Source: a virus. From it: a stretch of 64,000 nt of DNA. Numbering within the stretch: the first letter of the stretch is position 1; the number at the start of each line of letters is the position of its first letter. Under the pieces are notes generated by a model that saw only the letters and a list, made by a program, of their open reading frames with translations, made no database searches and was not told where the DNA came from. Below, one piece after another: positions 6,165 through 51,402 of the stretch. The position numbers and the translations under genes are program-made. The DNA lies in IMG/VR virus record IMGVR_UViG_3300034062_007329, positions 1 through 64,000 of that record; one strand, 5' to 3'.

Positions 6165-6172
6165 GAGAAAAT

Positions 6173-6634
6173 ATGACAACGATTATGTTCCCAGAAACAG
6201 TAAAATTACAATGGAAGCCCCTGACAGAAACAGCTAAAGCCCCGCAGAAAGCGCATGCAGAAGATGCTGCTTGGGATCTTTTTGCTGATTGCCCAGATAA
6301 AGGAATTGACATCAACCCAGGACAAACAAAAATCGTACCAACTGGTTTAGCCATTATGCCACCAAAAGGATGGGCATGTGATATTCGTGGTCGTAGCGGA
6401 ATGAATAGTAAGGGAAAGTTTGTTATCCTTGGTCTTGTAGATTCTTTTTATACTGGTCCTTGGGGTGTTGTTGTGCATAACGGCACAAACGATATTATTA
6501 CAATAAATCATCATGACAAATTAGCACAGTTTACTGTGCAAAGGGTATATGAAAGCTCATTAGTAAGAGTTGAAGAATTCAACGATCAGGGAACACGTGG
6601 AAGCGGTGGATTTGGATCAAGCGGTGTAAAATGA
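6173..6634 (+). CDS. dut: Trimeric dUTPase
   Basis: DAAWDL, GRSG, GLVDSFYTG, LAQF, RGSGGFGSSG; AGGAG RBS. Confidence 0.95.
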   Translation: MTTIMFPETVKLQWKPLTETAKAPQKAHAEDAAWDLFADCPDKGIDINPGQTKIVPTGLAIMPPKGWACDIRGRSGMNSKGKFVILGLVDSFYTGPWGVVVHNGTNDIITINHHDKLAQFTVQRVYESSLVRVEEFNDQGTRGSGGFGSSGVK

Positions 6635-6852
6635 ATAGAAAAGAGCGTAGAGCGGCAGAAAAAATGATGGGTAAAGAAACGGCACAAAAAGCGAGCCTAA
6701 TGCTTTCCATCCCAGAGAAGTGCTTGACTTGTGACTCAAGATTTGATAAAAAGAGTAGAGAGCACGCGATGACTTGGTATGTTGAAGTCTTTGAATCGCA
6801 AAAAAGAGTCGATTTATATTGTCCTGCGTGTCAAGAAAAGAGGAAAAAATGA
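6631..6852 (+). CDS. Small CxxC...CxxC zinc-binding protein
   Basis: CLTC and CPAC; MNRKERR start. Confidence 0.6.
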   Translation: MNRKERRAAEKMMGKETAQKASLMLSIPEKCLTCDSRFDKKSREHAMTWYVEVFESQKRVDLYCPACQEKRKK

Positions 6853-7880
6853 AAGAAGCTCTAACTTACGATGACGTACTACTCGTTCCAAAATTCTCCG
6901 ATATTGAGAGTAGAGCAAATATTAGCTTGGAAAGTGAACTTGATGTATCTTTAAAGTTTAATACCCCAATCATTGCCAGCCCAATGGATACAGTAAGCGG
7001 TGAAAATATGGCAATTAAACTGTCGCAATTAGGTGGCGTAGCAGTAATTCATAGATACAATACAATTGAACAACAATGTGAAATTGTTAGGAGCGTTAAA
7101 AGAGTTGGTGAGCGCGTTGGCGCTGCTGTTGGAACAACTGGCGATTTCTTAGAAAGAGTGACAAGACTAAAGAACGCTGGGGTTGACTTCATCTGTATTG
7201 ATGTTGCTCATGGACATCACAAAATGGTTTATGACGCAATTACTAAAATTCGCGCTGCTTTCCCATTTTTACATATTATGGCAGGGAATGTTGCCACCGC
7301 CGAGGCATTTGAAGCTTTGCAATCATGGGGTGCAGATTCAATCCGTGTAGGAATCGGTGGAGGCTCTATTTGCTCTACTCGCATTCAAACAGGGCATGGC
7401 GTTCCAAACGTTAGCGCGATTATGGAATGCGCTGAAGTCGCCACTTCAGCTAAACTTATTGCTGATGGCGGTATCAAAAATGCTGGCGATATCGTTAAAG
7501 CTTTAGCCGCTGGAGCAGACTTTGTAATGTTAGGTTCTATTCTTGCTGGAACAGATGAATCTCCTGGCGAAGTTATTGAATCTGTTTTGCATGGCACTAA
7601 GATGAAGTCTTATCGCGGCATGGCAAGCCGTGAAGCGCAAGAGGAATGGCGCGGCAAGTCTTCAGCACCAGAAGGAATTTCTACTATGGTTCCGTATAAA
7701 GGACCAGTAGAATTTATTTTTAATGATCTGGTGGGAAATATTAAAAGCGGGCTATCATATACTGGTGCTGTGACTATTAGTGGTTTACAGAGTAGATCTG
7801 AATTTATTCGCCAAACCTCCGCTGGTCAGCATGAAAGCTCAACACACATTCTTTCAAAAACTCCATTTGGACACAGATAA
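6849..7880 (+). CDS. IMP dehydrogenase/GMP reductase family enzyme (no CBS domain; probably GMP reductase-like)
   Basis: ALTYDDVLLVP, SPMDTV, DVAHGH, AGNVAT, VGIGGGSICSTR, IADGGI, YRGMAS, PEG; no IMPDH flap Arg-Tyr dyad. Confidence 0.9.
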   Translation: MKEALTYDDVLLVPKFSDIESRANISLESELDVSLKFNTPIIASPMDTVSGENMAIKLSQLGGVAVIHRYNTIEQQCEIVRSVKRVGERVGAAVGTTGDFLERVTRLKNAGVDFICIDVAHGHHKMVYDAITKIRAAFPFLHIMAGNVATAEAFEALQSWGADSIRVGIGGGSICSTRIQTGHGVPNVSAIMECAEVATSAKLIADGGIKNAGDIVKALAAGADFVMLGSILAGTDESPGEVIESVLHGTKMKSYRGMASREAQEEWRGKSSAPEGISTMVPYKGPVEFIFNDLVGNIKSGLSYTGAVTISGLQSRSEFIRQTSAGQHESSTHILSKTPFGHR

Positions 7881-8194
7881 TGGATACTGGATGGAAAAGA
7901 TATACTTTCTATATTAATTCCACCGCTCATGCGGATATGCGTATTAAACTTCGCCATGATGAAGTCCCACAACAAACATTCTTTAAAATGCTCATAAAAG
8001 CATACATCGAGGATAATACGCATATGCGAGAGTTAATAAAAGAATTAAATGCAGAAAAGCTCGGAAAGCGCTCTTTGAAAAAAATGAAAAAAGATGAAAA
8101 ACTTGCCACAGAACAAGAAGAGTGGTTCGGTTTAAGTGAAGAAGAAATAACAGATATTTATGACCAAATAGAAATGGATGATAATAATGAGTGA
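7880..8194 (+). CDS. Hypothetical protein
   Basis: 104-aa ORF translationally coupled to upstream gene. Confidence 0.6.
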   Translation: MDTGWKRYTFYINSTAHADMRIKLRHDEVPQQTFFKMLIKAYIEDNTHMRELIKELNAEKLGKRSLKKMKKDEKLATEQEEWFGLSEEEITDIYDQIEMDDNNE

Positions 8195-8444
8195 ATATAA
8201 GTTTACAACATGTGTTGAAGCGTGCAAAACATTAGAAGAATCATGTCCAAATAGCGATTGTCGCAGCTGGATTAATTACGAAGAAGACCTAAATTGTACA
8301 CATATTGCAGTTCAAAAGCATGGTAGTATGACCTTGCGAGAAGTATCAAAAAGGATCGGGTGCAGTTTTGTACGAGTAAAACAGATAGAAGAAGATGTTT
8401 TAGAAAAAATTAAAGATCAAATGAACGATTCCAACTATTTATAA
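8187..8444 (+). CDS. Cys-rich protein with sigma70 region-4-like HTH
   Basis: MTLREVSKRIGCSFVRVKQIEEDVLEKIK matches the region 4.2 pattern TLxEVxxxxxxSxERVRQIE. Confidence 0.7.
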   Translation: MSEYKFTTCVEACKTLEESCPNSDCRSWINYEEDLNCTHIAVQKHGSMTLREVSKRIGCSFVRVKQIEEDVLEKIKDQMNDSNYL

Positions 8445-8517
8445 TGTTATAAAAAGTCTTTTTAATTTACGAGTTACTATTTATTTTAAATTTTAACAAT
8501 CTTTTAGGAGATAACAA

Positions 8518-9435
8518 ATGAGCAATAAGAAAAGTTTACTAACTGAATCAGAAATCCGTCGTTTTATGAAACTTGCCAACATCCCAGCAATCGGCAAGGA
8601 ACTTGTTAAAGAAGAAAGCGAAGCTATCAACCGTATTCAAGGCGACACCGAAGCAACAAGCGCCGTACTTCCAAGAAGCGAAGGCTATACGGCAGGAATG
8701 GAAGAAGAAGACCAAATGCCAGAATTAGATGATGCTGGCGGCGAAGAAGAAACAATGAAATTAGGCGACGAAGCAGCGGAAGGAGCTGGCGAAGAAGTAA
8801 GCGATGAGTTAGCTATGAAAGTCGCAAAAGCTGTATTAAGCGCTTTGGGCAAGGAAAGCGAATTTTCAGTAGAAGAAGAACCAGAAGCAGCAGCACCAGA
8901 ACAAGAGCCAAGTGAAGAAGAAGGCGAAGAAGGTGAAGAAGCTTCTGAAGAAGGTGAAGAAGAAGGTGAAGAAGAAGGTGAAGAAGAATTAGATGAAGCA
9001 GAGGAAGTAGAAGAAAGCGAAAAACTTGAAGAGTCAAAGTTGATAGAGACTATTCTTGCTCGCGTTACTGCTCGCTTAATTGCAGAAGCCAAGAAGAGCA
9101 AAATGTCAGCAGCAGAAAAGAAAAAGAAGGCAGAAGAAGCCAAGAAGAAAAAAGAAATGATGAAGAAAAAGGCAGCTGCTGCAAAAAATAAATTAGAAGA
9201 AGCTAACGCACCAGCCCCAAAATCAACAATGCCAAACGCATCAGCAGCTGGCGTTGCAAAAGGACATGGTCCCGGTTCAAAAGCTTTTGGAACCGATGAA
9301 AAGAAGAGCATGAAATGGAAACAAGGCAAGGGCGAAAAAGGTCACGAACTACAAACAGTCTCAGCATCAGCTGAACATATCGTTTCACACGGTAAGAAAA
9401 ACTTAGCTGTTCAAGGCGGAAATAAAAAAGGTTAA
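8518..9435 (+). CDS. Low-complexity acidic/basic protein, probably late or virion-associated
   Basis: AGGAG RBS; EEG repeats, Lys/Ala-rich segment; two ACTATTTA motifs upstream. Confidence 0.75.
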   Translation: MSNKKSLLTESEIRRFMKLANIPAIGKELVKEESEAINRIQGDTEATSAVLPRSEGYTAGMEEEDQMPELDDAGGEEETMKLGDEAAEGAGEEVSDELAMKVAKAVLSALGKESEFSVEEEPEAAAPEQEPSEEEGEEGEEASEEGEEEGEEEGEEELDEAEEVEESEKLEESKLIETILARVTARLIAEAKKSKMSAAEKKKKAEEAKKKKEMMKKKAAAAKNKLEEANAPAPKSTMPNASAAGVAKGHGPGSKAFGTDEKKSMKWKQGKGEKGHELQTVSASAEHIVSHGKKNLAVQGGNKKG

Positions 9436-9512
9436 TTAAGATTACCATATAAATATAAGGCACCGACATATCTCTAATGGTGTGTCGGTGTTTTACTATA
9501 AGGGAAAATAAA

Positions 9513-9779
9513 ATGCAAATCACAAAAGGTCAGCTAAGACAAATTATAGCAGAAGAGATGGAAAATATCGCCAATGAGGAAGAGGAGATGGATACTTTAA
9601 TTGAAAGCTATTCTTCTGTCTATCAAAGTGGCGAAAGCAGCGTTTCTAAAGACGCTCTTATCGACTTCCTTGAAGTATTAGAGGAGCAAAATATTCCAAA
9701 AGCAGCGTTAGAAGCTTTTATGGCGAATCTCCCAGAAGAAATGGTAGCTCCGTTATTAAAAGAAGTTGTAGAAGAATAA
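9513..9779 (+). CDS. Hypothetical protein with MxITKxxLxxIIxEE leader
   Basis: MQITKGQLRQIIAEE. Confidence 0.7.
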   Translation: MQITKGQLRQIIAEEMENIANEEEEMDTLIESYSSVYQSGESSVSKDALIDFLEVLEEQNIPKAALEAFMANLPEEMVAPLLKEVVEE

Positions 9780-25448: not shown

Positions 25449-26447
25449 ATGATAGATTATGCTGATGTAGTGGTTGATCTTGCGTATGGGGATTCTGGAA
25501 AGGGAAAAGTTACACATCATTTAGCTAAAGTTGGGAACTATACTCACGTAATCAGGTTTTCTGGAGGCAATAACGCTGGACACACGATTTACCACGAAGG
25601 CAAGAAGTTTATCACTCATTCTATTCCTTCTGGTGTATTTTATGGAATTCGAAGCATTATTGGACCTGGATGTGTACTTAATGTAGAGCATTTCTTTAAT
25701 GAGATGAAGGAGTTGGAAGATGGTGGTGTCAGGTGTCAGGGCTTGGTATTTATTGCACGAAATGCTCATATCATCACCGATGAACACGTTATGGAGGATC
25801 GACAAGATAACGTTATCGGGACAACAAAACGCGGCGTCGGTCAAGCCTATCGTGACAAGCACAGCCGCAAGGGCATACGAGCGGAACAGGTAGAAAAGTT
25901 AAAACCATACCTAATTGATATGTATGAGGAGTTTTATAAACCTAATCAAATTAGTCGTATCCTTTTTGAAGGCGCTCAAGGATTTGGTCTTGATATCGAT
26001 TGGGGAGATTACCCTTACGTTACTTCTTCTGGCTGCACTGTTGCTGCTGCAATTGCTAATGGAGTTCCTGCAAAGCGAATTCGCAATGTTTGGGGAGTTG
26101 CGAAAGCTTATGAAACGTATGTTGGAATGAAGAAATTTGAACCAGATGAACCCGTGTTTAAAACAATGAGAGAAATTGGAAATGAATACGGAGCAACAAC
26201 TGGTCGTCCTCGTCAATGCAATTGGGTCAATGCAAAAAATCTTTTTAAAGCTATCGATCTAAACGGAGCTAACAAGATTGTATTTAACAAGGTTGATATC
26301 TTGAGAGAGATTGGCTCTTGGAAGATCTATGATGAAGACGACAAACTTGTAGAGTTTAAGAGCGAAGAAGAAATGAAAACTTGGTTTGCTAATAAGCTCC
26401 CAAGATCAACTGAGATCTATTGGTCGGATTCACCGGAAAGACTATAA
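25449..26447 (+). CDS. purA: Adenylosuccinate synthetase (short form)
   Basis: YGDSGKGK, GGNNAGHT, IGTTKRGVG, EGAQGFGLDID, YPYVTSS, EYGATTGRPR, NKVD. Confidence 0.93.
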   Translation: MIDYADVVVDLAYGDSGKGKVTHHLAKVGNYTHVIRFSGGNNAGHTIYHEGKKFITHSIPSGVFYGIRSIIGPGCVLNVEHFFNEMKELEDGGVRCQGLVFIARNAHIITDEHVMEDRQDNVIGTTKRGVGQAYRDKHSRKGIRAEQVEKLKPYLIDMYEEFYKPNQISRILFEGAQGFGLDIDWGDYPYVTSSGCTVAAAIANGVPAKRIRNVWGVAKAYETYVGMKKFEPDEPVFKTMREIGNEYGATTGRPRQCNWVNAKNLFKAIDLNGANKIVFNKVDILREIGSWKIYDEDDKLVEFKSEEEMKTWFANKLPRSTEIYWSDSPERL

Positions 26448-26677
26448 TGGAGACTATAAAAGTAAAGCAGGGAGAATTTGAGGCTACAATATCGAAAGAC
26501 CCAGAGAGGGTCTTCATAAGCTTTAATATCCCAATGAAAGAACAAGAAGGTTTCAACCCAAATGATTTTTCATATCTTATTGAGCACATGATGTATCTGG
26601 CGATGAATAAAGATGGGAAATATGTCGTGGAATATCAGGGGCTTGACACGCCAATATCTGCGTGATAGAGTGTCTCT

Positions 26678-27765: not shown

Positions 27766-28393
27766 ACTAAAATTTAAAATCTAAACAGAAAAGCCTCCCG
27801 ATAAAAAGGGAGGCTTCTTTCTTTTTGACATCATAAATTTCCTGTGGTATAGTTTGTGGAGGAGGAGATATGTTATATACAATTTGTCCAAGAAATAGAG
27901 CTGGTGCTTTTGAACAAAAGTTTATGATTGATGGTGATTTTGAATTAGCTGTTCTTGTTGCTCGTCATACATTCCTTAGCAATAGCGTTCACCATGTAGA
28001 AATTTATGAAGGACGAGTGCCTGTAATGGATTGTTGGGGTAAGCCGAAACTATTTGTTTATAAGGACAATGTTTCAGAAACAAGGCTACATTGATAAGAT
28101 CGATAAAGACGATATGGAGCAAGGCTTGCGAGACTTGCAGATAGGCGATTTAATTTTTGATCCTTGGTATGGCTTTGGTCTAATTATATCTTTAGACCAA
28201 ATAAATAATTTTCAAAGCGAAATAAGATTTTATGATAATCGAGAACAAAAATTCTTATTAGACATGGAACAGGCATATTTCTTGAAAAGAAACATACCAG
28301 TGCTTCTTCAAGTTTCAGATATGAATCCAAGAAGCGAAGATACGAGAAGAATATGGTCAGAAGAAATGTATTGTATATTTTAGGAGAATAATA

Positions 28394-38962: not shown

Positions 38963-39176
38963 TTGACAAGCCCTTCGCTCCGTGATAAGATGTCTTTAAC
39001 GCTGGTGATCTGGTGTGAGCGAAACACAGAAGTCCAGCAAAAAAAGTGAAACGGGGCGCTTGACAACGGCTCGGAGTCGTGGTAGACTGTTCTTCAAGGT
39101 GGCGCTGAGTGCGAGGCGCACCGACGAACGAAAGAAAAAAAGAGTGCTTGACAAGCCTGCCCGCGTGTGGTAGACT
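38963..39176 (+). promoter_or_regulatory. Three tandem sigma70-type promoters upstream of the tRNA array
   Basis: TTGACA-17-TAAGAT (38963), TTGACA-17-TAGACT (39060), TTGACA-17-TAGACT (39148), all with a TG-rich segment before -10. Confidence 0.85.
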
Positions 39177-39582: not shown

Positions 39583-39659
39583 GGACCTGTAGCTTAACTG
39601 GTTAAAGCACTCGACTTATAATCGAGAGAGTCTGGGATCGTTCCCCAGCGGGTCCACCA
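39583..39659 (+). tRNA. tRNA-Ile(UAU)
   Basis: CTCGA-CT-TAT-AA-TCGAG; encoded CCA. Confidence 0.88.
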
Positions 39660-39664
39660 ATTAC

Positions 39665-39753
39665 GGGGATGTGGCGGAATTGGCATACGCAAAGCACTTA
39701 AAATGCTTCGGGTCTTAGCGCCCATGTGGGTTCGACTCCCACCATCCCCACCA
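39665..39753 (+). tRNA. tRNA-Leu(UAA)
   Basis: AAGCA-CT-TAA-AA-TGCTT, long variable arm, CCA. Confidence 0.95.
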
Positions 39754-39810
39754 ATTTTGTTAGTCGTTTCGTGGTAGAGACAACTAATTATTATTACGAG
39801 GTGTCTCCCT

Positions 39811-40263
39811 ATGAAAACAAAAGAAGAAATAGAAGCAGCAGTAAGAGATAGTTTATCATACGCTCAAACGCTTTCTAAGTTAGATTTGAAGCCTATGGGT
39901 GGCAACTATCGAATCCTGAAACGCAAGATTGCAGAGTATCAAATAGATACAAAGCATTTTACTGGCAAGGGTCATTTAAAGAATAAAACGCACGACTGGT
40001 CTAAAAAGATTCCTCTTGTTGATATATTAAAAGAGGGAACAATCTATCAAAGTTTTAAGTTAAAAAATAGGTTGTTAAAAGAAAAGATCATTGAAAACAA
40101 ATGTAGTGAATGTGGTCTTGGTGATGAATGGTTTGGCAAGAAAATTAACCATCATTTAGATCACATAAACGGTGTCAACACTGATAATAGGTTAGAGAAT
40201 CTAAGATTGCTCTGCCCTAATTGTCATAGTCAAACTGATACTTATACTGGTAAGAATAAATAG
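39811..40263 (+). CDS. HNH endonuclease (homing type) inside tRNA array
   Basis: CSECG...HLDHINGVNTDNRLENLRLLCPNCHSQT. Confidence 0.9.
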   Translation: MKTKEEIEAAVRDSLSYAQTLSKLDLKPMGGNYRILKRKIAEYQIDTKHFTGKGHLKNKTHDWSKKIPLVDILKEGTIYQSFKLKNRLLKEKIIENKCSECGLGDEWFGKKINHHLDHINGVNTDNRLENLRLLCPNCHSQTDTYTGKNK

Positions 40264-40269
40264 TTTAGT

Positions 40270-40345
40270 TGGCGAGTAGCACAATGGCAGTCGCAGCGAG
40301 CTGTTAACTCGCAGGTTGCAGGTTCAAGTCCTGCCTCGCCAGCCA
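40270..40345 (+). tRNA. tRNA-Asn(GUU)
   Basis: GCGAG-CT-GTT-AA-CTCGC; CCA. Confidence 0.93.
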
Positions 40346-40362
40346 ATTTATGTAATAATCAT

Positions 40363-40438
40363 GGGGAGTTAGCTCATCAGGTAGAGCAAAAGACTTTTAA
40401 TCTTTTGGTGGACGGTTCGAGTCCGTCACTCCCTACCA
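40363..40438 (+). tRNA. tRNA-Lys(UUU)
   Basis: AAAGA-CT-TTT-AA-TCTTT; CCA. Confidence 0.95.
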
Positions 40439-40468
40439 ATTTTCAAAGTAAGACTATTTAAGTATCAT

Positions 40469-40543
40469 GGCTCGTTCGTCTAATGGTTAGGACGGAAGCC
40501 TTTCAAGCTTCAAACAAGAGTTCAATTCTCTTACGAGTCACCA
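40469..40543 (+). tRNA. tRNA-Glu(UUC)
   Basis: GAAGC-CT-TTC-AA-GCTTC; CCA. Confidence 0.93.
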
Positions 40544-40557
40544 ATTTATATAAGGAC

Positions 40558-40694
40558 TATGCGGGCTTATTATTATAAGGTGTTCAACTCTGCTGCGAAC
40601 ACCCAGTCAAGCGCGGAACCTTGAATTCCTTTGCTGAGATGGCATGATTATTAAAGCGCAGATAGTGGTTGGGTCGAGAAACCAACCCCGCATA
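40558..40694 (+). ncRNA. Unknown multi-branched structured RNA
   Basis: Closing stem TATGCGGG/CCCGCATA; internal hairpins CTTAT/ATAAG, GGTGTTC/GAACACC, GGTTGG/CCAACC; fills a slot between two tRNAs. Confidence 0.55.
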
Positions 40695-40703
40695 ATGTTT
40701 TAT

Positions 40704-40777
40704 TGGGAATTCGTCTAAGGGCAGGACGGCAGACTTTGAATCTGCCTATGGTGGTTCAAATCCATCATTCCCAACCA
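40704..40777 (+). tRNA. tRNA-Gln(UUG)
   Basis: GCAGA-CT-TTG-AA-TCTGC; CCA. Confidence 0.93.
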
Positions 40778-40789
40778 ATTTTGTTTTGC

Positions 40790-40866
40790 GGTCTGGTAGC
40801 TCAATTGGATAGAGCAAAGAGCTTCTACCTCTTAGGTTGGGGGTTCAAGTCCCTCCCAGATCGCCA
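40790..40866 (+). tRNA. tRNA-Arg(UCU)
   Basis: AAGAG-CT-TCT-AC-CTCTT; CCA. Confidence 0.95.
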
Positions 40867-40872
40867 ATTTGC

Positions 40873-40962
40873 AGAGGGTTGTGTGAGCGGTTGAAACAGC
40901 CAGACTTGAAATCTGGTATACCTTAACGGGTATCAAAGGTTCAAATCCTTTACCCTCTGCCA
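40873..40962 (+). tRNA. tRNA-Ser(UGA)
   Basis: CCAGA-CT-TGA-AA-TCTGG, long variable arm, G73-CCA. Confidence 0.93.
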
Positions 40963-40973
40963 CTAATTAACAC

Positions 40974-41063
40974 GGATGTTTAGACCGCTAAAGTAGACGG
41001 GTCGCTCTGTAAAAGCGATATCCCTTGTGATCCGAGTGGGCGCGATTCCCTCAACATCCACCA
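40974..41063 (+). tRNA. tRNA-Tyr(GUA)
   Basis: TCGCT-CT-GTA-AA-AGCGA; atypical T loop; CCA. Confidence 0.85.
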
Positions 41064-41085
41064 ACCTGTAAGCAGGAGGCAACAA

Positions 41086-41265
41086 ATGAAGATCGTTCGT
41101 AATAGCGCGAAGTGTAAGAAGTGCGGGGACGAAATCGAAAGCAAGCATCGTCACGATTTTGTTTCTTGCAAGTGTGGTGAAATCTTTGTTGATGGTGGCA
41201 AGGATTATTTCCGTCGCGGTGCAAAGGATCTTGAGAATATCGTTGATACTTCTGTGAGTGTGTAA
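41086..41265 (+). CDS. Small zinc-ribbon protein (not in ORF track)
   Basis: GGAGG RBS; MKIVRNSAKCKKCGDEIESKHRHDFVSCKCGEIFVDGG. Confidence 0.8.
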   Translation: MKIVRNSAKCKKCGDEIESKHRHDFVSCKCGEIFVDGGKDYFRRGAKDLENIVDTSVSV

Positions 41266-41327
41266 TTCGATGGGAATGTCTCCCATCCCTAACCGCTGGA
41301 TATTCCAGCAGAGAGAGAAAGAAACAA

Positions 41328-41525
41328 ATGAAGATCGCTAATTCGCTGTGGGCTGTGGTTGAGCGTTCGGATGTTGATGGTGGCAGTTTCGTGATGCGCG
41401 AGGAGATTTTCAGTTCGCGTCAGGATGCCCGCGATTATCTTTCTGAGGTAAAGCGTAGTGGCGTTGTGGATCGCCCTCGTTCGCTGTTCATTCGCCAGTT
41501 GCGCGTTACTAACAAGCGTGGCTAA
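41328..41525 (+). CDS. Hypothetical protein
   Basis: 65-aa ORF preceded by GCTGG/CCAGC leader hairpin. Confidence 0.6.
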   Translation: MKIANSLWAVVERSDVDGGSFVMREEIFSSRQDARDYLSEVKRSGVVDRPRSLFIRQLRVTNKRG

Positions 41526-41608
41526 TTATTAAGAACGGTCTGTGATCGTTTGGGCTTTGGTGGTTGCGCCCGTGGGTTGTTCCATAAAGCAACCGCCCCA
41601 ATTTTTAA

Positions 41609-41684
41609 GCCTATTTAGCTCAGTTGGTAGAGCACGTCACTTGTAATGATGAGGTCGCCCGTTCGATTCGGGCAATAGGCTCCA
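41609..41684 (+). tRNA. tRNA-Thr(UGU)
   Basis: CGTCA-CT-TGT-AA-TGATG; CCA. Confidence 0.95.
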
Positions 41685-41694
41685 ATTGTTGTAT

Positions 41695-41781
41695 GGGCGA
41701 ATGGCGTAACAGGTAGCCGCGACAGACTCAAAATCTGTTTCCTGCAAAGGAGTGTCGGTTCGATTCCGACTTTGCCCACCA
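41695..41781 (+). tRNA. tRNA-Leu(CAA)
   Basis: ACAGA-CT-CAA-AA-TCTGT; long variable arm; CCA. Confidence 0.95.
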
Positions 41782-41914
41782 ATCTACACTACAGCAATAA
41801 ACACAAGGTCTGTGGTTTCCAAAGTGGGTTGGAAATTATTGTTGAGCGAACTACAGGTTCTCTGGCATATCCTGTTGTAGAAAAAGCCAGACTTTTTATA
41901 AGGAATTAGCTGAA

Positions 41915-42469
41915 ATGCTTACGTCAAAAGCTGACCTGAAGCAATTAGTACGAACAAGAAAGTTGGTAAGGGAACAAGCAGAAACTTCTTATGAAGATCC
42001 AGAAGATTTTATATTTTTTTGCTACATTGCAAAGAACCCACAGTCTTATGGAAGTCTCTTGGAGAAAAGAATAAGAGAGAAGAACGGAATGATTAAAGTC
42101 GAAGCATCCCAAGAGAAAGGTGATGCTGTAGACGTGGATGGTAATTTTAAAGAGATTAAGTGCTCTATAAGTGATTGTGGTGTATTTAATGCAGTTCAAA
42201 TTAGACCACACCACAATATTCATTCTTGTTTGCTTTTCTTTTTTGAAATTGATGATAGCACAAACGTCGTGAATCACTTCTTTGAAGTTCCAGAGAAAGA
42301 TGTATTAACTTTTCCTGGTATCTCAATAGCTCATGGCGTTAAAGCAAACAAAAATTCTAAATCAGAGTATAGAATTACGTTTGATAAAAACAAAAAAAAG
42401 TCTGATACTGTTGCTGGTAGAGCATGGAATGAACTTCAAAAATATAAAATAAGCAACAAGATATTTTAA
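41915..42469 (+). CDS. PD-(D/E)xK nuclease-like protein inside tRNA array
   Basis: YGSLLEK...GDAVD...KEIKCS. Confidence 0.6.
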   Translation: MLTSKADLKQLVRTRKLVREQAETSYEDPEDFIFFCYIAKNPQSYGSLLEKRIREKNGMIKVEASQEKGDAVDVDGNFKEIKCSISDCGVFNAVQIRPHHNIHSCLLFFFEIDDSTNVVNHFFEVPEKDVLTFPGISIAHGVKANKNSKSEYRITFDKNKKKSDTVAGRAWNELQKYKISNKIF

Positions 42470-42485
42470 AAGAATTGTTCTATTT

Positions 42486-42560
42486 GGGAATGTAGTTTAA
42501 TGGTAAAACATCTGTCTCATACGCAGAATAGTGATGGTTCGATTCCATCCGTTCCCACCA
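42486..42560 (+). tRNA. tRNA with CAU anticodon (Met, possibly Ile2)
   Basis: TCTGT-CT-CAT-AC-GCAGA; CCA. Confidence 0.88.
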
Positions 42561-42566
42561 ATTTAC

Positions 42567-42640
42567 AGTCCCATAACTTAATGGTAAAGTAAAAGGCTCT
42601 TACCCTTTTAATGAGAGTTCGATTCTCTCTGGGACTACCA
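42567..42640 (+). tRNA. tRNA-Lys(CUU)
   Basis: AAAGG-CT-CTT-AC-CCTTT; CCA. Confidence 0.88.
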
Positions 42641-42648
42641 AATATATT

Positions 42649-42723
42649 TGCAAACTGGTATAGATTAACGGAAAAGCGTTGCGGCAGCAAAGATATGGGT
42701 TCAAATCCCATTGCCAGTTTGCA
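42649..42723 (+). ncRNA. tRNA-like RNA without normal anticodon arm or CCA
   Basis: 12-bp closing stem TGCAAACTGGTA/TGCCAGTTTGCA; canonical T arm ATGGG-TTCAAAT-CCCAT. Confidence 0.65.
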
Positions 42724-42731
42724 TTTTAATT

Positions 42732-42810
42732 TTATGCGGTAGCAGGTTCGATTCCTGCCTGTCGCCCGCTAATATGGGAGGCGGAGAGCAGAATGGTTAC
42801 TTTCGCATAA
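42732..42810 (+). ncRNA. Circularly permuted tRNA-like RNA (YrlA/Y-RNA-like), copy A
   Basis: Closing stem, then T arm first, closed acceptor-like hairpin, D-loop-like GAATGGTT last. Confidence 0.7.
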
Positions 42811-42819
42811 TCCTTTCGT

Positions 42820-42895
42820 GTGTCCTTGTTGTATTTAGTTTGCATACCAGACTGTGACTCTGGCGGAATTGGTGCGAATCCAATAGGACACCCCA
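42820..42895 (+). tRNA. tRNA-His(GUG)
   Basis: CCAGA-CT-GTG-AC-TCTGG; C73-CCA. Confidence 0.85.
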
Positions 42896-42946
42896 ATTTG
42901 CTCCTTTCCCCTATAGCATCCTATTTACTTTATGGAGGTAATAGCG

Positions 42947-43343
42947 ATGGCTAAAACAAATCAAAAGGGAAAGGAGAGAGCAACAAAGAAAGATTCAGGC
43001 AACAAAGCATTTATAATTAGCATGATTGTATTTGCTGTTCTTGTTTCTGGGTGTGTCTCGTACTTATTATGGGATAGGAGCAATTCACACCAATATGGTT
43101 GCATGGTATTAGGCGTTGACCAAGTATCTGGATTGGTTGGATTGGAATGTTACAAGAAATAACATGAAACTACCATATCCGCACGATGAAACGTATCATA
43201 AAGAATTCATGGAGTATGATGATTTCTATGCTGCGTATTATTGCAAAAAATGTGATTTCTGGTTAGAAGATAAGTGCGAAGATCCCCTTTGCCTATTCTG
43301 CAAACAAAGACCAGAGAAGCCATCAAAAGTATTTTATAGTTGA
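42947..43343 (+). CDS. Small TM protein (42947-43162) and Cys-rich protein (43145-43343, paralog at 45624-45788)
   Basis: Shared motif CxxCDxWLExKCEDxxCxFCxxRPxKPS. Confidence 0.6.
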
Positions 43344-43367
43344 AAACAATTTTAGTTTGAGATATAA

Positions 43368-43970
43368 ATGAAAAAAGATTTTACTATTAAAGCGATAGCA
43401 AAAGAAGAAGCAAAGTCTATTTTAGAAAAATATCATTATCTATCTAAGATATCTCGCGGCTTTAAAAGCGGGTATAATTATGGATTATACCACAAACAAA
43501 CACTTTCTGGAGTTTCTATCTTTACTGGTCTACCAGTTCCAGAAGTCGCTAAAGGTTGCTTTGGTTTAGAGAGAAATGAACAGGATGGGTTATTCGAATT
43601 ATCCCGTCTGTGCCTCATACCAGAAGTTCAGCATAGTGAACATAACTTGGCTGGTTGGTTTTCTTCAAGAGCGATTAAGCAATTACGGAAAGATGTAAAT
43701 GTTCGTGCGATCCTGTCATATGCCGATAATGATTTCCATAGCGGAATTGTTTATGCTGCAACAAACTGGAAATACTATGGGTTAACAGATCCAAAGAAAG
43801 ATTTTTGGTTCAAGCAAGAGGATGGCACATACAAAAAGCATAACAGAGGAAAAATTAGTGGTTGCGAAGGCGAATGGAGAGATCGCAGCAGAAAGCATCG
43901 CTTTTTAAAAGTATTTGATCCATCTCTAAATGTTCTTTGGCAAGAACAAGAGTGGAAAAATAAAAGTTAG
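43368..43970 (+). CDS. Mom-like (GNAT-fold) DNA modification protein
   Basis: KYHYL, FELSRLCL, ILSYAD...HSGIVYAATNWKYYG. Confidence 0.75.
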   Translation: MKKDFTIKAIAKEEAKSILEKYHYLSKISRGFKSGYNYGLYHKQTLSGVSIFTGLPVPEVAKGCFGLERNEQDGLFELSRLCLIPEVQHSEHNLAGWFSSRAIKQLRKDVNVRAILSYADNDFHSGIVYAATNWKYYGLTDPKKDFWFKQEDGTYKKHNRGKISGCEGEWRDRSRKHRFLKVFDPSLNVLWQEQEWKNKS

Positions 43971-44173
43971 TGTTTGGATAGGTGAATATCAAAGAGAGGT
44001 GTTCCCCGTTGCAGATGAACCCCTTTCCGCTGCAAGACCAACGGATAAAATATAAATCGCAACTAAGTATGCAATCCGCTAAGAGAGGTTGCCCCAAAAA
44101 GGTAATGGCTGTGGATTGGAAACCCATTGCGGGTTCTTTACCTACCCGCCTTCGCATTATCTTCCAAACACTA
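43968..44173 (+). ncRNA. Unknown ~205-nt structured RNA
   Basis: 11-bp closing stem TAGTGTTTGGA/TCCAAACACTA; internal stems CCGTTG/CAACGG, CAATCCGC/GTGGATTG, GCGGGT/ACCCGC. Confidence 0.6.
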
Positions 44174-44185
44174 TTTATGTATTAT

Positions 44186-44262
44186 GCGATAATAGCTCAG
44201 TTGGTTAGAGCATTCGCTTGATAAGCGAAAGGTCGTTGGTTCAAGTCCATCTTATCGCACCA
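44186..44262 (+). tRNA. tRNA-Ile(GAU)
   Basis: TTCGC-TT-GAT-AA-GCGAA; CCA. Confidence 0.93.
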
Positions 44263-44271
44263 ATTTAGAAT

Positions 44272-44349
44272 CGGGGTATCGCCTAACCTGGCATGGCACC
44301 AGTTTTGGGAACTGGCAAAATATTGGTTCAAATCCAATTACCCCGACCA
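44272..44349 (+). tRNA. tRNA-Pro(UGG)
   Basis: CCAGT-TT-TGG-GA-ACTGG; CCA. Confidence 0.93.
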
Positions 44350-44406
44350 ATTTTTTTTCTCTTATTCAGCTATATAACTATTTATATACATTACAGGAGA
44401 AATCGT

Positions 44407-44673
44407 ATGAAAATTACCAAAGAGTATTTAAAAGAATTGATCAAAGAAGAACTCAGCGAGTCTGGGGAACCTTTTTCCAAGAGACACAAACAGCAAGCCA
44501 GCAGAGTCTTAAAAAGCTTTTTACAAAAAAAAAGCAAAGCTCTAAGCCCACAAGTTGAAAATAAAGTAATAGAAATATTAGCCGACAAAATTAATCAAAG
44601 CGAATATAGCGGTAGCGGTGGTACGCTTAGTGATTCCCATATAGCAATGGCTATATTAGATGTTGTTTTGTAG
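44407..44673 (+). CDS. Hypothetical protein with MKITK leader
   Basis: MKITKEYLKELIKEELSE; ACTATTTA and AGGAG upstream. Confidence 0.7.
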   Translation: MKITKEYLKELIKEELSESGEPFSKRHKQQASRVLKSFLQKKSKALSPQVENKVIEILADKINQSEYSGSGGTLSDSHIAMAILDVVL

Positions 44674-45787
44674 TTATTTTAGAACATACTTGTAGGTGTA
44701 AAGCCACAGATGATCCTTTCGTCTGTGGCATTTTATATCACGGTGTTATTCAAATGCGGTTTCCAGCCGCCCGCAACTTATTTCCCCGCAACCAACAATT
44801 AAACTCTTGACACGCTGCCCCTGCCGTGGTAGTATGGTATTAACGCTGATGGGCAGCGAGAGGAAATGAATGTCACTTTATAGTGAATGTGCGGATATCT
44901 ACGCAGAATATGTTGAACCCTATTACTATGATGGGGACTATGATCTTGAGTTTATGCCTAAAATGAGGCAGCGTGCTGCAAAGGCAGTTGTTGAGTATGT
45001 GAAAAAGAATTATCCAGATACTCCCACAACCTATTGCAAGGCTTGTGACGAGATCCATCCATACACCAAGATTGTTTATGATTCTGGTGTTGCTGCCGAT
45101 GTTTGTTTGGTTTGTGGTTATGGTGTAGTTCCGATTGAGGGGAAGTAAAAATGGAAAAGCGTTGCTCAAATTGTAAAAGCTATCTTACTGATCTTGAAAT
45201 TGAAGCTTGCGGTGGAATGTGTGCTGAATGTGAATTCTATTCAGTAGTTTTAATGGATGATGATAGTTTGGAGGAAGCGTAATGTCTAATATCTATATGA
45301 TCCGCCGTAAGACCGATGGTAAGTATATTTGCGGAAGCGGTCGTTATCCTTGGTTTTCCGATGATATCGGTAGAACCTTCTATTCGCTCCATTCGGTTAA
45401 GATTTTCTTAACAAACTATCTCAAGTGTAATAAGATCAAGACTTGGGAGAATGGACGTTACAAGTTTAATGCTGGTGAGTTCTTTACTCCAAGCAACATT
45501 CTTCTTAATTGTGAAGTTGTAGCGGTTGAGGTTAAGCCAAGTTCTATCCAAGACATTTTTGAGTTCTCCGCTCAAACTGAAATGGAGCGAAAGACAAAGA
45601 AGAAGAAGGCAAAGAAGTAAGCAATGTTCAAAGTAACTTGTAAGTTATATGAATTTCATAAAACTGACTATAGTTACGAATATGATGCCTATTTCTGTTG
45701 CGATTGCGATGATTGGTTAGAAAAGAAATGTGAAGATCATCGCTGTAACTTTTGTCCAAAGCGCCCAGATAAGCCATCGCAAGTTTA

Positions 45788-45879
45788 GGAAACGTGGGTG
45801 AGAGGCTTAAACCAGCGGTTTGCTAAACCGCCGTAGGTGTAACAATCTACCGAAGGTTCAAATCCTTCCGTTTCCGCCA
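45788..45879 (+). tRNA. tRNA-Ser(GCU)
   Basis: GCGGT-TT-GCT-AA-ACCGC; long variable arm; CCA. Confidence 0.95.
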
Positions 45880-45959
45880 TTACAGCCAGTTGCCAATCAA
45901 TTTTGGTAACTGGCTATTTTTTTGTTGACTCCTGCCCTCGCTTGTGATAGGATAAAAGA

Positions 45960-46765
45960 ATGGAACCCAAGGTTGGACAGATTTGGCGATATGCTACACC
46001 TTTCGATAATGGTGAAACCGTATATGAATATATTTTCATAACTGGGATCAAATCGAACGGACACGCAGTTCATTATTTTTCCTTTGATGATCCAGAAAGA
46101 CCCGTATGGGATTACGCACAATCGTTTGTGGAAAACAAAAGTTATGAATTTGTGAGTGGCTAATGAAACCCCAAATCAAGATCGGGCAAGTTTGGAAGTT
46201 CAAAGAAAGTTATGGCAGCGGTACAGATTATTACTTTGTTGTCAATCGTATCACGGAACAAGTGATCGGGTTTCAGTATTTGCACAAGGATTCAACTGGT
46301 TGGTGTTTTGAACGGGATTTTCATCGACAATATGAATTGGTGAGTGATGTATGAGAACTCCAATTCCTGGTGAATTGTGGAAAGACGAACACAATAAAAC
46401 GTTACTTATAAAAAGCGTAAGAGTAGATCATCCAGTAAGTCACGATTGGATTTATTATTATATCGTTGATTATGATATAGATAGTAATTGTTCGCTTGCA
46501 TCTTTCGTTAAATATTCAACGCTGGTGAGTGGATATTCTGATGGATAAAGTAAAAGTTGGACAAGTTTGGAAGATACTTGAAAGTAAGTTAGACCTCAAG
46601 GGAGGGAACCCAGAAGATTACCTAATCGTTATCACAAAGATTTATAAGAAAGGAATGGTTGCAGACTTCTTTTATCTTGATGGTTATGATTCTGGTCGTG
46701 ATGGTGAGGACGATATAAACATTCCTTGGCTACTCAAGAATGGACAATTGGAGAGTGATGTATGA
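45960..46765 (+). CDS. Four tandem small paralogs, KVGQxW subfamily (45960, 46163, 46351, 46541)
   Basis: KVGQIWR/KIGQVWK/PGELWK/KVGQVWK starts; (F/L)VS or LES ends. Confidence 0.75.
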
Positions 46766-47108
46766 GTAAAGATTATGATAAGGGCTTCCAAGATGCAGTA
46801 AAAAAGATTAGCGATCTATTGCTTTCCGAATTTAAAGTATACAAAAAGGAAATAAAGGGATACGTTAAGGATACTGATTATCTTTCTGCTTACGAAAACA
46901 AGGTTCGCATGGAAGATGCTGATTTCTATTTCCACGAATTCCGTAAGATGGTTGTAGATAAAGCTGATAGCGATGAGCATAAAGCTTGCAATTGTTTAAT
47001 CTGCAAAGGGGAATAAAATGGGTCGCTGCTGCACATAAAGGACGATGCTGTTTCGCAAGCAGCAAATAAGCTCTTGACTTCAAAGCCCACCTATGTTAGA
47101 CTGTTCCT

Positions 47109-49666
47109 ATGGTCGAGCATAAGGTGGGCGAACTTGTTTTGATGGTTCTTAGGACTTATGAGAGAAGATACCAATACCTTGGTATCATCAAAAAGGTTGA
47201 TGACGGAATAATGATTGGTACAAAAGCCTATTTTGTCGAATGGAACGATGGACAAGACAATTGGTATTCCTCGGAAAGTATTGAGGAAATGAAAAGTGAC
47301 CTCTGGACTTACTATGAATCACAAAATCGGTGATCTTATTTGGTCACAATCCGCACACGAAATTGCAATCATCGTTGGATACTTTCCAAATGGTTTGCAC
47401 GGATCGGACAAGTTTAAATATTCCGTTTGCCACAGCTCTACTGGTAATCGGTTCTTCTACACGGAAGAAATGATTGAAACGGGCAAAAAGCAATTAGAGA
47501 AATTCTATGAACGCGAAGCATCAAATCGGTGATCCTGTATACAGCAATTCGTATGGTCTTGGATATATTTCTGATATTGAACCAACCACTCTTCATGTGA
47601 AGCATCACGTTAAGTGGATGGACGATAATATGTTTCTTGCAGATGATAGATGGTATGAAGCAAAAGGCATTGACACTCTCAAGATGTTCCTGCGAATGAA
47701 ATTGCGCGGTGAAGATATATGAAACATAAAGTTGGTGACCTTGTTTATTACAAAGCAAACAAGAAAGTGTTTGCAGACAAAAACCAACCTTCAATTGGCA
47801 TTATAGCCAAGTGCTTTCCAAGGAAAGATACTTATTGGATTGAATGGTTGAATGACAGCGATGTGCTTTATCAGAAATTAGTAATGACAGAGTTTTCGGG
47901 TCAGGCGATTGGTTGGTTCAAAAGAGATTTGCAAGAGGTATTAGGGAATGACGGAACACAAAATCGGTGATCTTGTTTACCAGCTTGACAACAAAAGCAT
48001 TGGCATCATCACAAAGATCACAGATGATGATAAGGAGAGTATGCCTCGTTACCGAATGATTTATATTATTGAATATGCAAATGGCAAAACTGGTCGTCAT
48101 TCCGCTGCCGTCATTGATGGTATGAAAAGCAATCTACAAAACCACTTAAGGAAAGAAAATGGATCACAAAGTCGGTGATTTGATATATGACGATATTAGC
48201 GAAGCCATTGGAGTGATAAAGCGAATCCGTGAGGATGAAGAAAATGGAATACTCTATGATATCGAATGGAGTAGCGGAGAGGCATCAACTGGTATTCACG
48301 GACTTGCATCGGAATCAATTGACTATCTCAAGGATTTACTAAATGCAGAACTCAAAAGAGCACAACGTCGGTGATCTTGTTCTTGCTGGTGGTTTAGGGA
48401 TCATAACAAAGATAGATAGGGATTTCCGTGCTGACTGGTATCACGTTGAATGGTGTTGCGAAGGAAATGAAGCCATCAGAAGCGCGTTTCAGGATAACGA
48501 GATCGCGTATTTTAAAGAGGCGTTGAATCGTGAATCACAAAGTCGGTGATCCTGTTTATTGCAATGGTAGTGTAGGAGCAATCAAGGCAACAAGCGAAGG
48601 GGTATATGGTCCCCAAGTAGTATTGCCAGAAACGGAGCGTAGTTATAGGATTGAATGGTTTGACGATAAACCATTTGCAAGTGGCTACATCCGAAAGGTC
48701 TGGTTTAACTTTTATGAAGTTGCTTCCTTCAAAGAGCAATTGCGAGAGGCGTTAAATGAGCAATCATCAAGTAGGTGATTTGGTCTACGATCCAGCATAC
48801 CAAGATTTTGGCGTTATCACAAAGATATGGACAGAGGATGAATTAACAAAACTTGGAAAAGAACCTCCATATTACACAATCGAAGTGCGATTCCCAGATA
48901 GCAAGGTTATGCCAGTAGATAGATACAAGCCAAATACGATTGACAAGTTCAAACGGACATTGAAGGATATGTATGATGAATCATAACGTTGGCGATCTTG
49001 TATTGCATAAGGCTCACACATTGAGGAATACTCTTGGATATATCAAAAAGATTAAAGCATATCGAGAGTACGAAGTCTATTGGTTCAATCCTTACTTGAA
49101 GCATCAAGATGACATATCGTTAGAGTCTGATGCGTCAATAAATTCGCTCAAAAGAAACCTACAGGAATATATGGATGAGCATCACTCATAAGGTAGGCGA
49201 TCTGGTGATGGGCGTCAATGTGGACAACGAAACAATTTTGGGAGTAATAAAAAAGATTTCCATTGCAGACACTAATATTGTTGTTGACAACAACGTGGAA
49301 CGCTATTATGAAGGTGAACCCCATTACCAGATTGAATGGGCGAATGATCTCCACTCTAATGTTTGGTATAAGGAAAGCAATGTTAATGCTTTCAAGATGA
49401 CGTTTGATGAATATATGAGGAGAAAGAAAAAATAAATGGATGAGTATAAGATAGGCGATCTACTCATGATGCATCGGCTTTCACTAAAGCCAGTAATTGG
49501 AATCGTCAAGGATTGTAAAGTGGGGGATATTAGCAATAGTAAATATTACTTTGTAGAATGGATATCCGAAGATGCGGGGATTACAACAAACGTTTGGTTT
49601 GCAGAATGTGATATACAATACTATAGGCAAGCGTATGTGCAGTATGCAGCGGATAATAGCCTTTAG
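47109..49666 (+). CDS. Twelve tandem small paralogs, HKxGDLV SH3/KOW-like subfamily
   Basis: Starts at 47109, 47314, 47507, 47719, 47948, 48159, 48343, 48530, 48756, 48976, 49175, 49436; pattern HK(V/I)GDLV...GII...YxIEW...helix. Confidence 0.85.
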
Positions 49667-49876
49667 ACACTTAAGGGGGATTAATAGGGGAGTGGGTATG
49701 TTGTATAGTGCGGTATGGAGTATAATAGGATGGACGCTGCCAACCCTGCGGAAAGTGGTATTAGCGCCACTATACCACAATATATAGTGGTGTGTAAAGC
49801 GTATCGCCTAAACCCCCGTAAATACAGGCAAAAAAACGTGCTTGACACGGTGCCTGATCCGTGGTAGGATGGTACT

Positions 49877-50663: not shown

Positions 50664-51402
50664 TAGGGCAAATGGGAGCGAATCTTGTGCTTGACACGGG
50701 GTTCGCTCCCTGCTATACTGTTTATATGGTGCGATGGAGCAGCGAACCATTAGATTGCCGCGTTGGTGATATTGTGGTTGAGAAGGTTAATGGGCAGAAT
50801 CCAACTTATTGGGTTATATCAAAAGTAACAAAGAATGATAACCCAATACGATTTGGGCATACATACAAAGAAGTGTATGATATGTTTAATCTGGAGAATG
50901 ATATGGATACAATAGAAAATGTTATGTTCCGCAATACGGAAGCAGTAACATATGAGATCATCCGTGGGTAATACATTCCGCGTCGGAGATCTTGTCGAAT
51001 TTCAAAGCAAAGAGTCGCATTCGTTATTCCAGAAAAAAGTGTGGAATAACAAAATCGGCGTCATTTCTGCCATTAGAACAAAAGCCGAAATCGCATATAT
51101 CAAATGGTCCGATTTGGACCTAAATGATGTATGGATTGCGTATGAAGATTTGAAGCTTCTAAACCGAGAGTAACAATCGGCAAGCGAAACGAAATAGTTC
51201 TACAAATAACATATGATATCTCGGGTAAACAGAACCATGTTATCACAAACCCGCCGCCGCTGTCAAGCATAAAAAGCGCCCCCTAACCCCCTGTAACTAC
51301 AGGCGAAAATAAAAGTTGACGGGGAACCCGTTTTCGGGTAGACTGTACTTGTTCGGTGGTCGTGAAGGCGTGTCGCCCGAAGCCACTGATAGGGTGCAAC
51401 CG

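Follow-up and report, generated by a model that had tools for sequence, protein, structure and literature searches.

What does a dozen small, mutually dissimilar genes, lined up head to tail in a phage genome, amount to, and how does such a set change? The question is raised by positions 47109 to 49666 of a 64,000-nucleotide (nt) stretch, hereinafter the window, which represents the first 64 kb of the 78.8-kb IMG/VR virus record IMGVR_UViG_3300034062_007329. With an estimated completeness of 35%, this record is a fragment of the genome of an uncultured large phage. Positions 47109 to 49666 are filled by 12 plus-strand open reading frames (ORFs) of 68 to 86 amino acids (aa) each, with start-to-start distances of 175 to 261 nt. 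We assign a probability of about 0.6 to an account in which these genes form an operon of 12 paralogs that exchanges cassettes at a 21-nt DNA block and encodes binders of different specificities, directed against variable host proteins. The architecture of the array and its mode of evolution are well supported; an anti-defense or host takeover role of its products is plausible. An initial sequence-only reading, which saw here an expandable library of variable small binders, is on the whole partly supported, and it withstood the two checks set for its refutation, namely, whether the units have a common fold and whether the arrays vary among relatives with breaks at the junction motif.

The existence of a 12-gene array of diverged paralogs, claimed in that reading, is borne out: all the ORFs were found where expected, on the plus strand, and they recognize one another in profile searches. 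Profiles built from 11 units at a time retrieve the twelfth with E values from 1e-5 to 1e-15, and a profile search of the whole record returns the 12 units with E values of 1e-21 to 1e-26 and everything else above 1e-3. Pairwise alignments of the units show 22 to 34% identity, with unit 2 being the most divergent. The shared features are the H-K-V-G-D-L-V, L-G-x-I, and Y-x-V-x-W (Y-x-V-E-W) motifs and a C-terminal helix with an I..K..L pattern. Searches of Pfam, PHROGs, NCBIfam, and PADLOC with 10 units from the window and with 65 members of the family found nothing at threshold. The 12 genes are stand-alone paralogs that belong to an undescribed family.

The units are joined by overlaps, which in the window measure, in order, 20, 26, 4, 23, 20, 32, 20, 23, 14, 17, and 0 nt, with a +1 frame step at 9 of the 11 junctions. 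Seven upstream genes terminate on a TGA that comes from the GGT|GAT codon pair of the next gene, and their products end in ESQNR, EASNR, GTQNR, GSQSR, RAQRR, ESQSR, and QSSSR. The dual-frame junction that had been proposed from the sequence, with these seven tails and their TGA stops, is thus found as described. Two more genes end on a TAA from CAT|AAx, and one junction is of the ATGA type. Because the stops lie within the motif of the next gene, the recurrent ...(S/T)Q(N/S)R tails represent H-K-(V/I)-G-D in a frame shifted by one base. The preceding stop being supplied by an out-of-register CAT|AAx or GGT|GAx, the same DNA carries both the tail of one gene and the leader and start of its successor. 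In a repeat search, the junction appears as 8 copies of a 27-nt repeat and 4 copies of its variant. Tandem Repeats Finder did not detect the array, owing to the extent of DNA divergence among its units. Family-wide, 92 of the 118 junctions step by +1, with overlaps of 8 to 47 nt (most often 20 or 23 nt), 20 step by +2 (14 of them ATGA), and the remaining 6 show no step. The upstream stop is made by the downstream G|D or H|K codon pair in 62 of the 99 distinct junctions. The overlapping dual-frame junction is a family-wide trait that has not been described previously.

The mode of evolution of the array becomes apparent from a comparison with 13 related metagenomic loci (labeled with L numbers here), all of which carry such arrays. 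Clustering of the unit bodies at 50% identity or higher gave 75 types in the 13 loci. With one letter per type, the unit order is A B C D E F G H I J K L in the window, A B M C D E F N O G P J Q R S K in L001, A B M C D E F N I... in L013, ...D E F N G V J K followed by a truncated L in L012, and A B C M U E F H... in L002. Along this common backbone, whole units are gained or lost (M; N-O; L), the segment between G and J is replaced (H-I, P, or V), and there is one change of order, M-C versus C-M. Unit L is not present as a whole unit in L001. Array content therefore differs among relatives, and, as described below, the breakpoints coincide with the junction motif.

Among 117 distinct units, the sole conserved DNA block is the 21-nt CACAAAGTnGGTGATCTnGTT, the remainder being at background. 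This block encodes strand β1 (H-K-V/I-G-D-L-V). When the window is aligned with L001, the high-scoring segment pairs stop and resume within the block, overlapping at 47518 to 47540 in unit 3 and at 48361 to 48380 in unit 7. When all related pairs are considered, 43 of 46 internal break sites fall from 6 nt before to 47 nt after a unit start, against 25% expected (binomial P value of about 1e-22); because each event is seen from both partners, about 20 independent events stand behind these 46 sites. The 3 exceptional sites comprise 2 ends of partner contigs and 1 decayed match. The M(Q/P)N(S/L)K... leader found after F precedes G in the window, N in L001 and L012, and H in L002, and, altogether, body G is found with three different leaders and body I with two. 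Since the short variable leader stays with the upstream unit and travels with it, the crossovers occurred inside the motif and not merely at gene borders, and the motif represents the cassette boundary. L013 and L001 are 97.5% identical over 3.4 kb and then switch bodies 29 nt into a unit, which indicates that such exchange events are recent. With the crossovers lying within the 21-nt block, a cassette consists of a body, its tail, and the leader of the next gene. Ordinary homology-dependent recombination, both between phage genomes and between units, would shuffle a population-wide pool of old cassettes. The earlier suggestion that the junction provides microhomology for shuffling is well supported by this comparison, with both the breakpoints and the chimeric leaders found at the motif. 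The coordinates of the units and of other features of the window are listed in Table 1.

Table 1. Positions of the array units and other features in the 64,000-nt window
Feature	Position(s)	Strand	Description
Unit 1 (body A)	47109-47333	+	74 aa; motif at 47118-47138; leave-one-out E value of 1e-14; 100% identical to unit 1 of L001
Unit 2 (body B)	47314-47532	+	72 aa; motif at 47320-47340; its GGT|GAT holds the TGA stop of unit 1
Unit 3 (body C)	47507-47722	+	71 aa; motif at 47519-47539; chimera of the cassette M leader and body C
Unit 4 (body D)	47719-47970	+	83 aa; motif at 47725-47745; ATGA junction with unit 3
Unit 5 (body E)	47948-48178	+	76 aa; motif at 47957-47977
Unit 6 (body F)	48159-48374	+	71 aa; motif at 48165-48185
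Unit 7 (body G)	48343-48549	+	68 aa; motif at 48361-48381; chimera of body G and the post-F leader (the one preceding cassette N in relatives)
Unit 8 (body H)	48530-48778	+	82 aa; GTG start; motif at 48536-48556; other bodies (P, V) here in relatives
Unit 9 (body I)	48756-48986	+	76 aa; motif at 48765-48785; in L013, same body after cassette N with a different leader
Unit 10 (body J)	48973-49191	+	72 aa; motif at 48982-49002; its CAT|AAC holds the TAA stop of unit 9
Unit 11 (body K)	49175-49435	+	86 aa; motif at 49187-49207
Unit 12 (body L)	49436-49666	+	76 aa; motif at 49445-49465; no overlap with unit 11
Promoter-like site	47074-47102	+	TTGACT-N15-TGnTAGACT; 6 nt between its end and the unit 1 ATG
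Promoter motif, example sites	26643-26671, 45925-45953, 47074-47102, 49842-49870, 50691-50719		
Probable remote relative outside the array	28054-28383	+	HMM E value of 7.7e-5; hhalign probability of 83%
Probable remote relative outside the array	50952-51173	+	HMM E value of 1.2e-5; hhalign probability of 80%
Second tandem set, four genes	45960-46163, 46163-46354, 46351-46548, 46529-46765		Own leaderless-type promoter
PurZ-like adenylosuccinate synthetase homolog	25449-26447		
tRNA cluster	39583-45879		17 genes with small ORFs between them; 42654-42719 seen by Rfam only
Mom family protein	43368-43967		

Orthologous bodies show ratios of nonsynonymous to synonymous substitution rates (dN/dS) of mostly 0.0 to 0.4, that is, purifying selection, and dS differs severalfold between neighboring units of the same genome pair, suggesting mosaic histories. 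Units of the same array share 26% identity on average and 44% at most, adjacent units are no more alike than nonadjacent ones (0.260 versus 0.258 identity; P = 0.40), and no array contains two similar units or recent duplicates. The arrays are therefore nonredundant sets that change by exchange of old cassettes and not by local amplification. The part of the sequence-only reading that called the array expandable needs to be modified, and recent "accordion" amplification is rejected, as adjacent units are not more similar than distant ones.

Sequence entropy of the family is low at approximately 17 core positions and near maximal elsewhere, and insertions cluster in three loops and the leader. 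The isoelectric points (pI) of the units range from 4.6 to 9.1. DNA mimicry and a uniform nucleic acid-binding role were considered and rejected because of this range. The description of the units as variable small binders would fit the combination of a constant core, near-maximal surface entropy, indel-rich loops, purifying selection, and mixed pI. The units might be binders with different specificities that most likely bind or neutralize variable proteins of an actinobacterial host, such as takeover targets or defense effectors. This proposal draws on the constant scaffold with free surfaces, the nonredundancy of the arrays, the conservation of each unit, the fast turnover between nearly identical genomes, and a host-type promoter amid small accessory genes.

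The same data can be examined for an ordinary multigene family, whose members would all have one shared job, e.g., as nucleic acid or RNA polymerase accessory isoforms, and would have diverged by old neutral drift, with unequal crossing-over at the best-conserved stretch and with neither a cassette system nor an arms race. The motif is the most conserved segment of the protein, so that recombination there needs no special device, there is no extra constraint on GGT usage, and dN/dS of the orthologs is low and not raised. Further, neither a recombinase nor a hairpin site was found in the record, which is approximately 35% complete. Such a family would not be expected, however, to form nonredundant arrays that never contain two similar units, to span pI values of 4.6 to 9.1 with near-maximal surface entropy though each ortholog is conserved, or to differ in array content even between 97.5%-identical genomes. 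Distinct specificities fit the nonredundancy, pI spread, surface entropy, and content turnover better than one shared job, and we regard the shared-job explanation as doubtful.

Structural predictions place the units in a familiar fold class. AlphaFold2 models of unit 6 (predicted local distance difference test [pLDDT] score of 89.6) and unit 2 (pLDDT of 93.5) have the same topology, with β-strands at approximately residues 8 to 11, 16 to 25, 30 to 40, and 46 to 50 and an α-helix at residues 51 to 70; in the unit 6 model, the strands are at 8 to 11, 16 to 26, and 30 to 37, and the helix is at 51 to 70. Model confidence is lower at the last residues, within the overlap. The units compared thus share a fold, and both models contain the 4 to 5 antiparallel strands of an SH3-like barrel. 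As modeled, each unit is a Tudor/PWWP-like β-barrel of the SH3 type followed by a C-terminal helix. VIA-align matches both models to Tudor, chromo-barrel, PWWP, KOW, PsaE, YorP, VapX, and CarD barrels, with Z scores of 4.7 to 6.5. For both models, the top-ranked matches are Tudor, chromo-barrel, PWWP, and KOW barrels (Z scores of 5 to 6.5), and the best matches of unit 6 are to Tudor and chromo-barrel domains (Z scores of 5 to 5.9). Foldseek searches of PDB and BFVD found no match at an E value of 1e-3 or lower for either model (all E values were above 0.04). Of the "SH3/KOW-like" label that the units had been given, the SH3-type barrel is retained and the KOW assignment is not: the KOW domain of NusG is among the fold matches (Z scores of 5.3 to 5.8), and, at the sequence level, only unit 5 hits KOWx_SPT5, below threshold (E value of 0.03). 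ESM Atlas yields only unnamed or SH3-like small-protein clusters (DsrB, DfrB, DUF3104, and DUF1918), with scores of 0.90 or less. As far as the models go, these structural matches support a fold class, not a family.

The closest resemblance is to the Royal family barrels, such as the SMN Tudor (1g5v), TbTudor (6if4), MRG701 (5in1), and the NSD3 PWWP1 (6g24) domains, which, like the units, combine a 4- to 5-stranded SH3-type barrel with a C-terminal helix. The family profile gives a weak match to NSD3 PWWP1 over the whole domain, with E values of 1.2e-4 (12 sequences) and 1.9e-4 (65 sequences), and the VGDLV(W/Y) of β1 and the Y-x-V-x-(W/F) of β3 align along it. The Pfam PWWP domain (PF00855) was not reported at E values of up to 0.1 for the 65 members or up to 1 for the 10 window units. 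The units lack the P-W-W-P segment and hence most of the aromatic cage: there is a 12-residue gap where NSD3 has GTYPWWPCMVSS, and, of the aromatic positions, only W37 of β3 is conserved. In addition, the units are not domains of chromatin proteins but phage proteins of 70 aa that stand alone.

YorP of the SPbeta prophage (2heq; Z score of 6.1 over 60 residues), the VapX antitoxin (6zn8_F; Z scores of 5.0 to 5.4), and the N-terminal domain of CarD (Z scores of 4.7 to 4.8) are similar to the units in size and fold. All three have known or presumed roles as protein-binding modules, and Pfam scans reveal no sequence kinship between them and the units. To our knowledge, none of them occurs in long arrays of diverged paralogs. 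The CarD similarity raises the possibility that the units are CarD/TRCF-RID-like Tudor domains that would dock onto the β subunit of the host RNA polymerase and reprogram it or compete with CarD. The fold matches include CarD structures 4l5g (Z score of 4.8) and 9e7v_M (Z score of 4.7), as well as 9e87_M, 6edt_M, and 4l5g_B, and also the Tudor domains of UvrD/PcrA, and the host is probably actinobacterial; yet the CarD matches are no better than those to dozens of other SH3-like barrels. Similarly, 3 of the 65 family members weakly match CarD_TRCF_RID (PF02559; best E value of 2.8e-4), but the gathering score is not reached, none of the three is a window unit, and the window units stay below every Pfam threshold. 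A dozen or more nonredundant versions with free surfaces would also be unexpected for a single conserved target, which makes CarD-like docking improbable.

Returning to the binder set exchanged as cassettes, several observations weigh against it. With middling fold matches (Z scores of 6.5 or less; Foldseek E values above 0.04), the fold class says little on function. Breakpoints at gene borders are also expected from selection for intact genes, so that only the chimeric leaders place the crossovers in the motif. One break, in L012, interrupts a body, of which a truncated 37-aa unit L persists at positions 1733 to 1846 of that locus. Searches of the 78.8-kb record for an integrase, RecA, and RecT found none of them, a result that is uninformative at approximately 35% completeness. 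Finally, when junctions that use it for a stop are set aside, GGT occurs at the motif in about 43% of cases, compared with the genome average of 41%; because GGT is not enriched, the dual-frame stop may be a passive by-product of the layout and not a selected signal. In a bolder version, the arrays would represent a recombinase-free cassette system whose 21-nt dual-frame motif encodes β1, terminates the gene before it, and is where crossovers take place. A clade of freshwater actinobacterial phages would then share a pool of hundreds of Tudor-like binders, each neutralizing a different strain-specific defense effector or toxin, so that array content tracks the local host defenses. This version is possible, but less likely than not.

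Several known systems share individual properties with the array. In T4-type phages, modular shuffling is mediated by PeSLs, and recombination between these motifs leads to insertions, deletions, and replacements among close relatives (PMC2839356, PMC4122927). As in the array, short repeated motifs flank small nonessential genes and the breakpoints coincide with the motif (43 of 46 here). However, PeSLs are intergenic cassettes of a promoter and a terminator that flank unrelated ORFans, whereas the repeat of the array is coding, is read in two frames, and belongs to homologous genes within one operon. The window array has one promoter at its head and no stem-loops at its junctions, unlike the promoter and stem-loop arrangement of PeSLs. 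Poxviruses and African swine fever virus have multigene families. Lineage-specific expansion in Bacillus phage G has produced about 35 copies of a zinc ribbon (PMC7824862). Such expansions in large viruses resemble the array in having many copies of one small domain, with copy numbers that vary between relatives; in contrast to them, the array units are anciently diverged, are exchanged as cassettes, and include no recent duplicates.

Integron cassettes are similar to the array in that promoterless genes, all pointing the same way, follow a single promoter and vary in content and order. One could accordingly imagine a site-specific, integron-like system in which the junction is the site of a dedicated recombinase, and the single conserved boundary and the alternative M-C and C-M orders agree with it. 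The junctions, however, contain no attC hairpin: no inverted repeats or hairpins were found there, and the 2 chance pairs detected are both inside bodies. No tyrosine recombinase (PF00589) or other integrase was found in the 78.8-kb record, which is weak evidence given its approximately 35% completeness. Unlike in integrons, the boundary is a coding motif, located inside the coding sequence and explained by protein constraint. An integron-type mechanism is therefore unlikely, and we rate it as very unlikely.

The promoter claimed at 47074 corresponds to a promoter-like site that belongs to an overrepresented motif and is conserved at the array head in relatives. The motif TTGAC[AT]-N14-15-TGnTAnnnT occurs 24 times in the window, compared with 0.15 expected. 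Of its 19 plus-strand sites, 5 are exactly 6 nt from the ATG of an ORF, and the promoter at the array head has the same 6-nt spacing in L001, L002, and L003. This spacing suggests that the first gene is leaderless. There are no copies of the promoter inside the window array; L004 and L005 have an internal copy at their one nonoverlapping junction. The host RNA polymerase would transcribe the operon, from 47074 to 49666, from this leaderless-type promoter.

Pairing with the anti-Shine-Dalgarno (SD) sequence upstream of the inner starts averages -5.2 kcal/mol, compared with -2.1 kcal/mol in internal control windows (P = 9e-21), and the SD-like sites of the inner genes lie within the helix-coding region of the preceding gene. 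As every inner gene has its own SD-like site, the translational coupling suggested earlier is possible and not required. The inner genes would start at these sites, possibly aided by termination-reinitiation. The consistent +1 step between neighbors also brings to mind programmed +1 frameshifting that would fuse the units into polyproteins. Against this, each inner gene has a start codon in addition to its SD-like site, the stops are heterogeneous (TGA, TAA, and ATGA) and found at different places, and there is neither a conserved shift-prone site on reading the junctions nor a long fused homolog. The polyprotein mechanism is likewise unlikely, to the point of being hardly credible.

The family extends well beyond the window. 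A profile search of 1.84 billion representatives found 361 clusters (at 50% identity) with E values of 1e-3 or lower. The best 150 of these 361 are proteins of 57 to 91 aa, with the exceptions of P0054 (744 aa) and P0055 (111 aa). P0054 was rejected as a family member, being an unrelated low-complexity repeat. P0055 is a gene call in which body G is preceded by an N-terminal part matching a stretch that, in L001, lies out of frame ahead of cassette O. Longer fused homologs were looked for and not found. Identical units are also carried by two contigs of 187,580 and 87,952 bases. Comparison with 50,697 GenBank phage records, by megablast with the array and by tblastn with unit 5, produced no match, and neither did a search of viral contigs for related loci with unit 12 alone. 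In the 13 related loci, the arrays range from 5 units, on short contigs, to about 24, with 16 units in L007 and 22 consecutive units in L010. This distant relative, L010, has two arrays (3 and about 21 units) at positions 2079 to 2743 and 4979 to 9572. In the window, a zinc ribbon gene comes after the array, whereas both arrays of L010 are located downstream of its homolog, and the position of the array is thus not fixed across the clade.

Small ORFs of unassigned role make up much of the gene content of large phages. Here, one block of such ORFs turns into a defined, diverse family with 361 clusters, about 24 nonredundant copies in the largest array, a confident fold, and a testable model of evolution by cassette exchange at one short coding motif. 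If the units bind host proteins, they would represent a natural library on a 70-residue scaffold and a new candidate class of counter-defense or takeover proteins in phages of uncultured freshwater Actinobacteria. They would also exemplify how a single stretch of 21 bases can be subject to protein constraint, gene overlap, and recombination together.

Nine further family members had been proposed elsewhere in the window, and the ORFs at 28054, 50952, and 27004 look like remote relatives. These three, together with an ORF at 55872 that had not been listed, have hhalign probabilities of 74 to 90% and hidden Markov model (HMM) E values of 1e-5 to 4e-3. The ORFs at 38744, 50726, 58923, 59149, 61086, and 63064 share with the family just a short motif, a V-G-D-like start (hhalign probabilities of 36% or less).

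Nearly all genes of the window are in the plus orientation. They encode, among others, a DnaE-type polymerase, GroEL, a PurZ-like enzyme, and a GP88 family protein. The PurZ-like and Mom family proteins suggest that the phage DNA may contain modified bases. The host is probably actinobacterial, as judged from the TANNNT-type -10 element, the leaderless starts, the actinophage affinities of the phage, and a relative binned with Acidimicrobiaceae. The actinophage affinities are those of DnaE, whose nearest homologs in GenBank phages (approximately 30% identity) are mostly from Streptomyces phages, and of the GP88 family. The binned relative is L013 (CAYVOK010000101.1; 5,181 bases), a contig of a metagenome-assembled genome titled uncultured Acidimicrobiaceae bacterium that carries the array given above. 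It is probably a phage contig that was binned with its host or by composition, and the binning represents weak evidence of the host.

Three copies of the promoter motif are found at 38963 to 39176, upstream of the tRNA cluster. Directly upstream of the array, there is a second tandem set of 4 small paralogs (63 to 78 aa) that start with K-(V/I)-G-Q-(V/I)-W; they have no detectable kinship with the array family (hhalign probability below 2%). Just 3' of the array, positions 49757 to 49851 form a noncoding block that has no match in Rfam and an unremarkable fold energy (fold z-score of -1.25). A strong local hairpin lies within the block, which continues into the next promoter and, with approximately 84% identity even in the distant relatives L006 to L008, is more conserved than the flanking genes.

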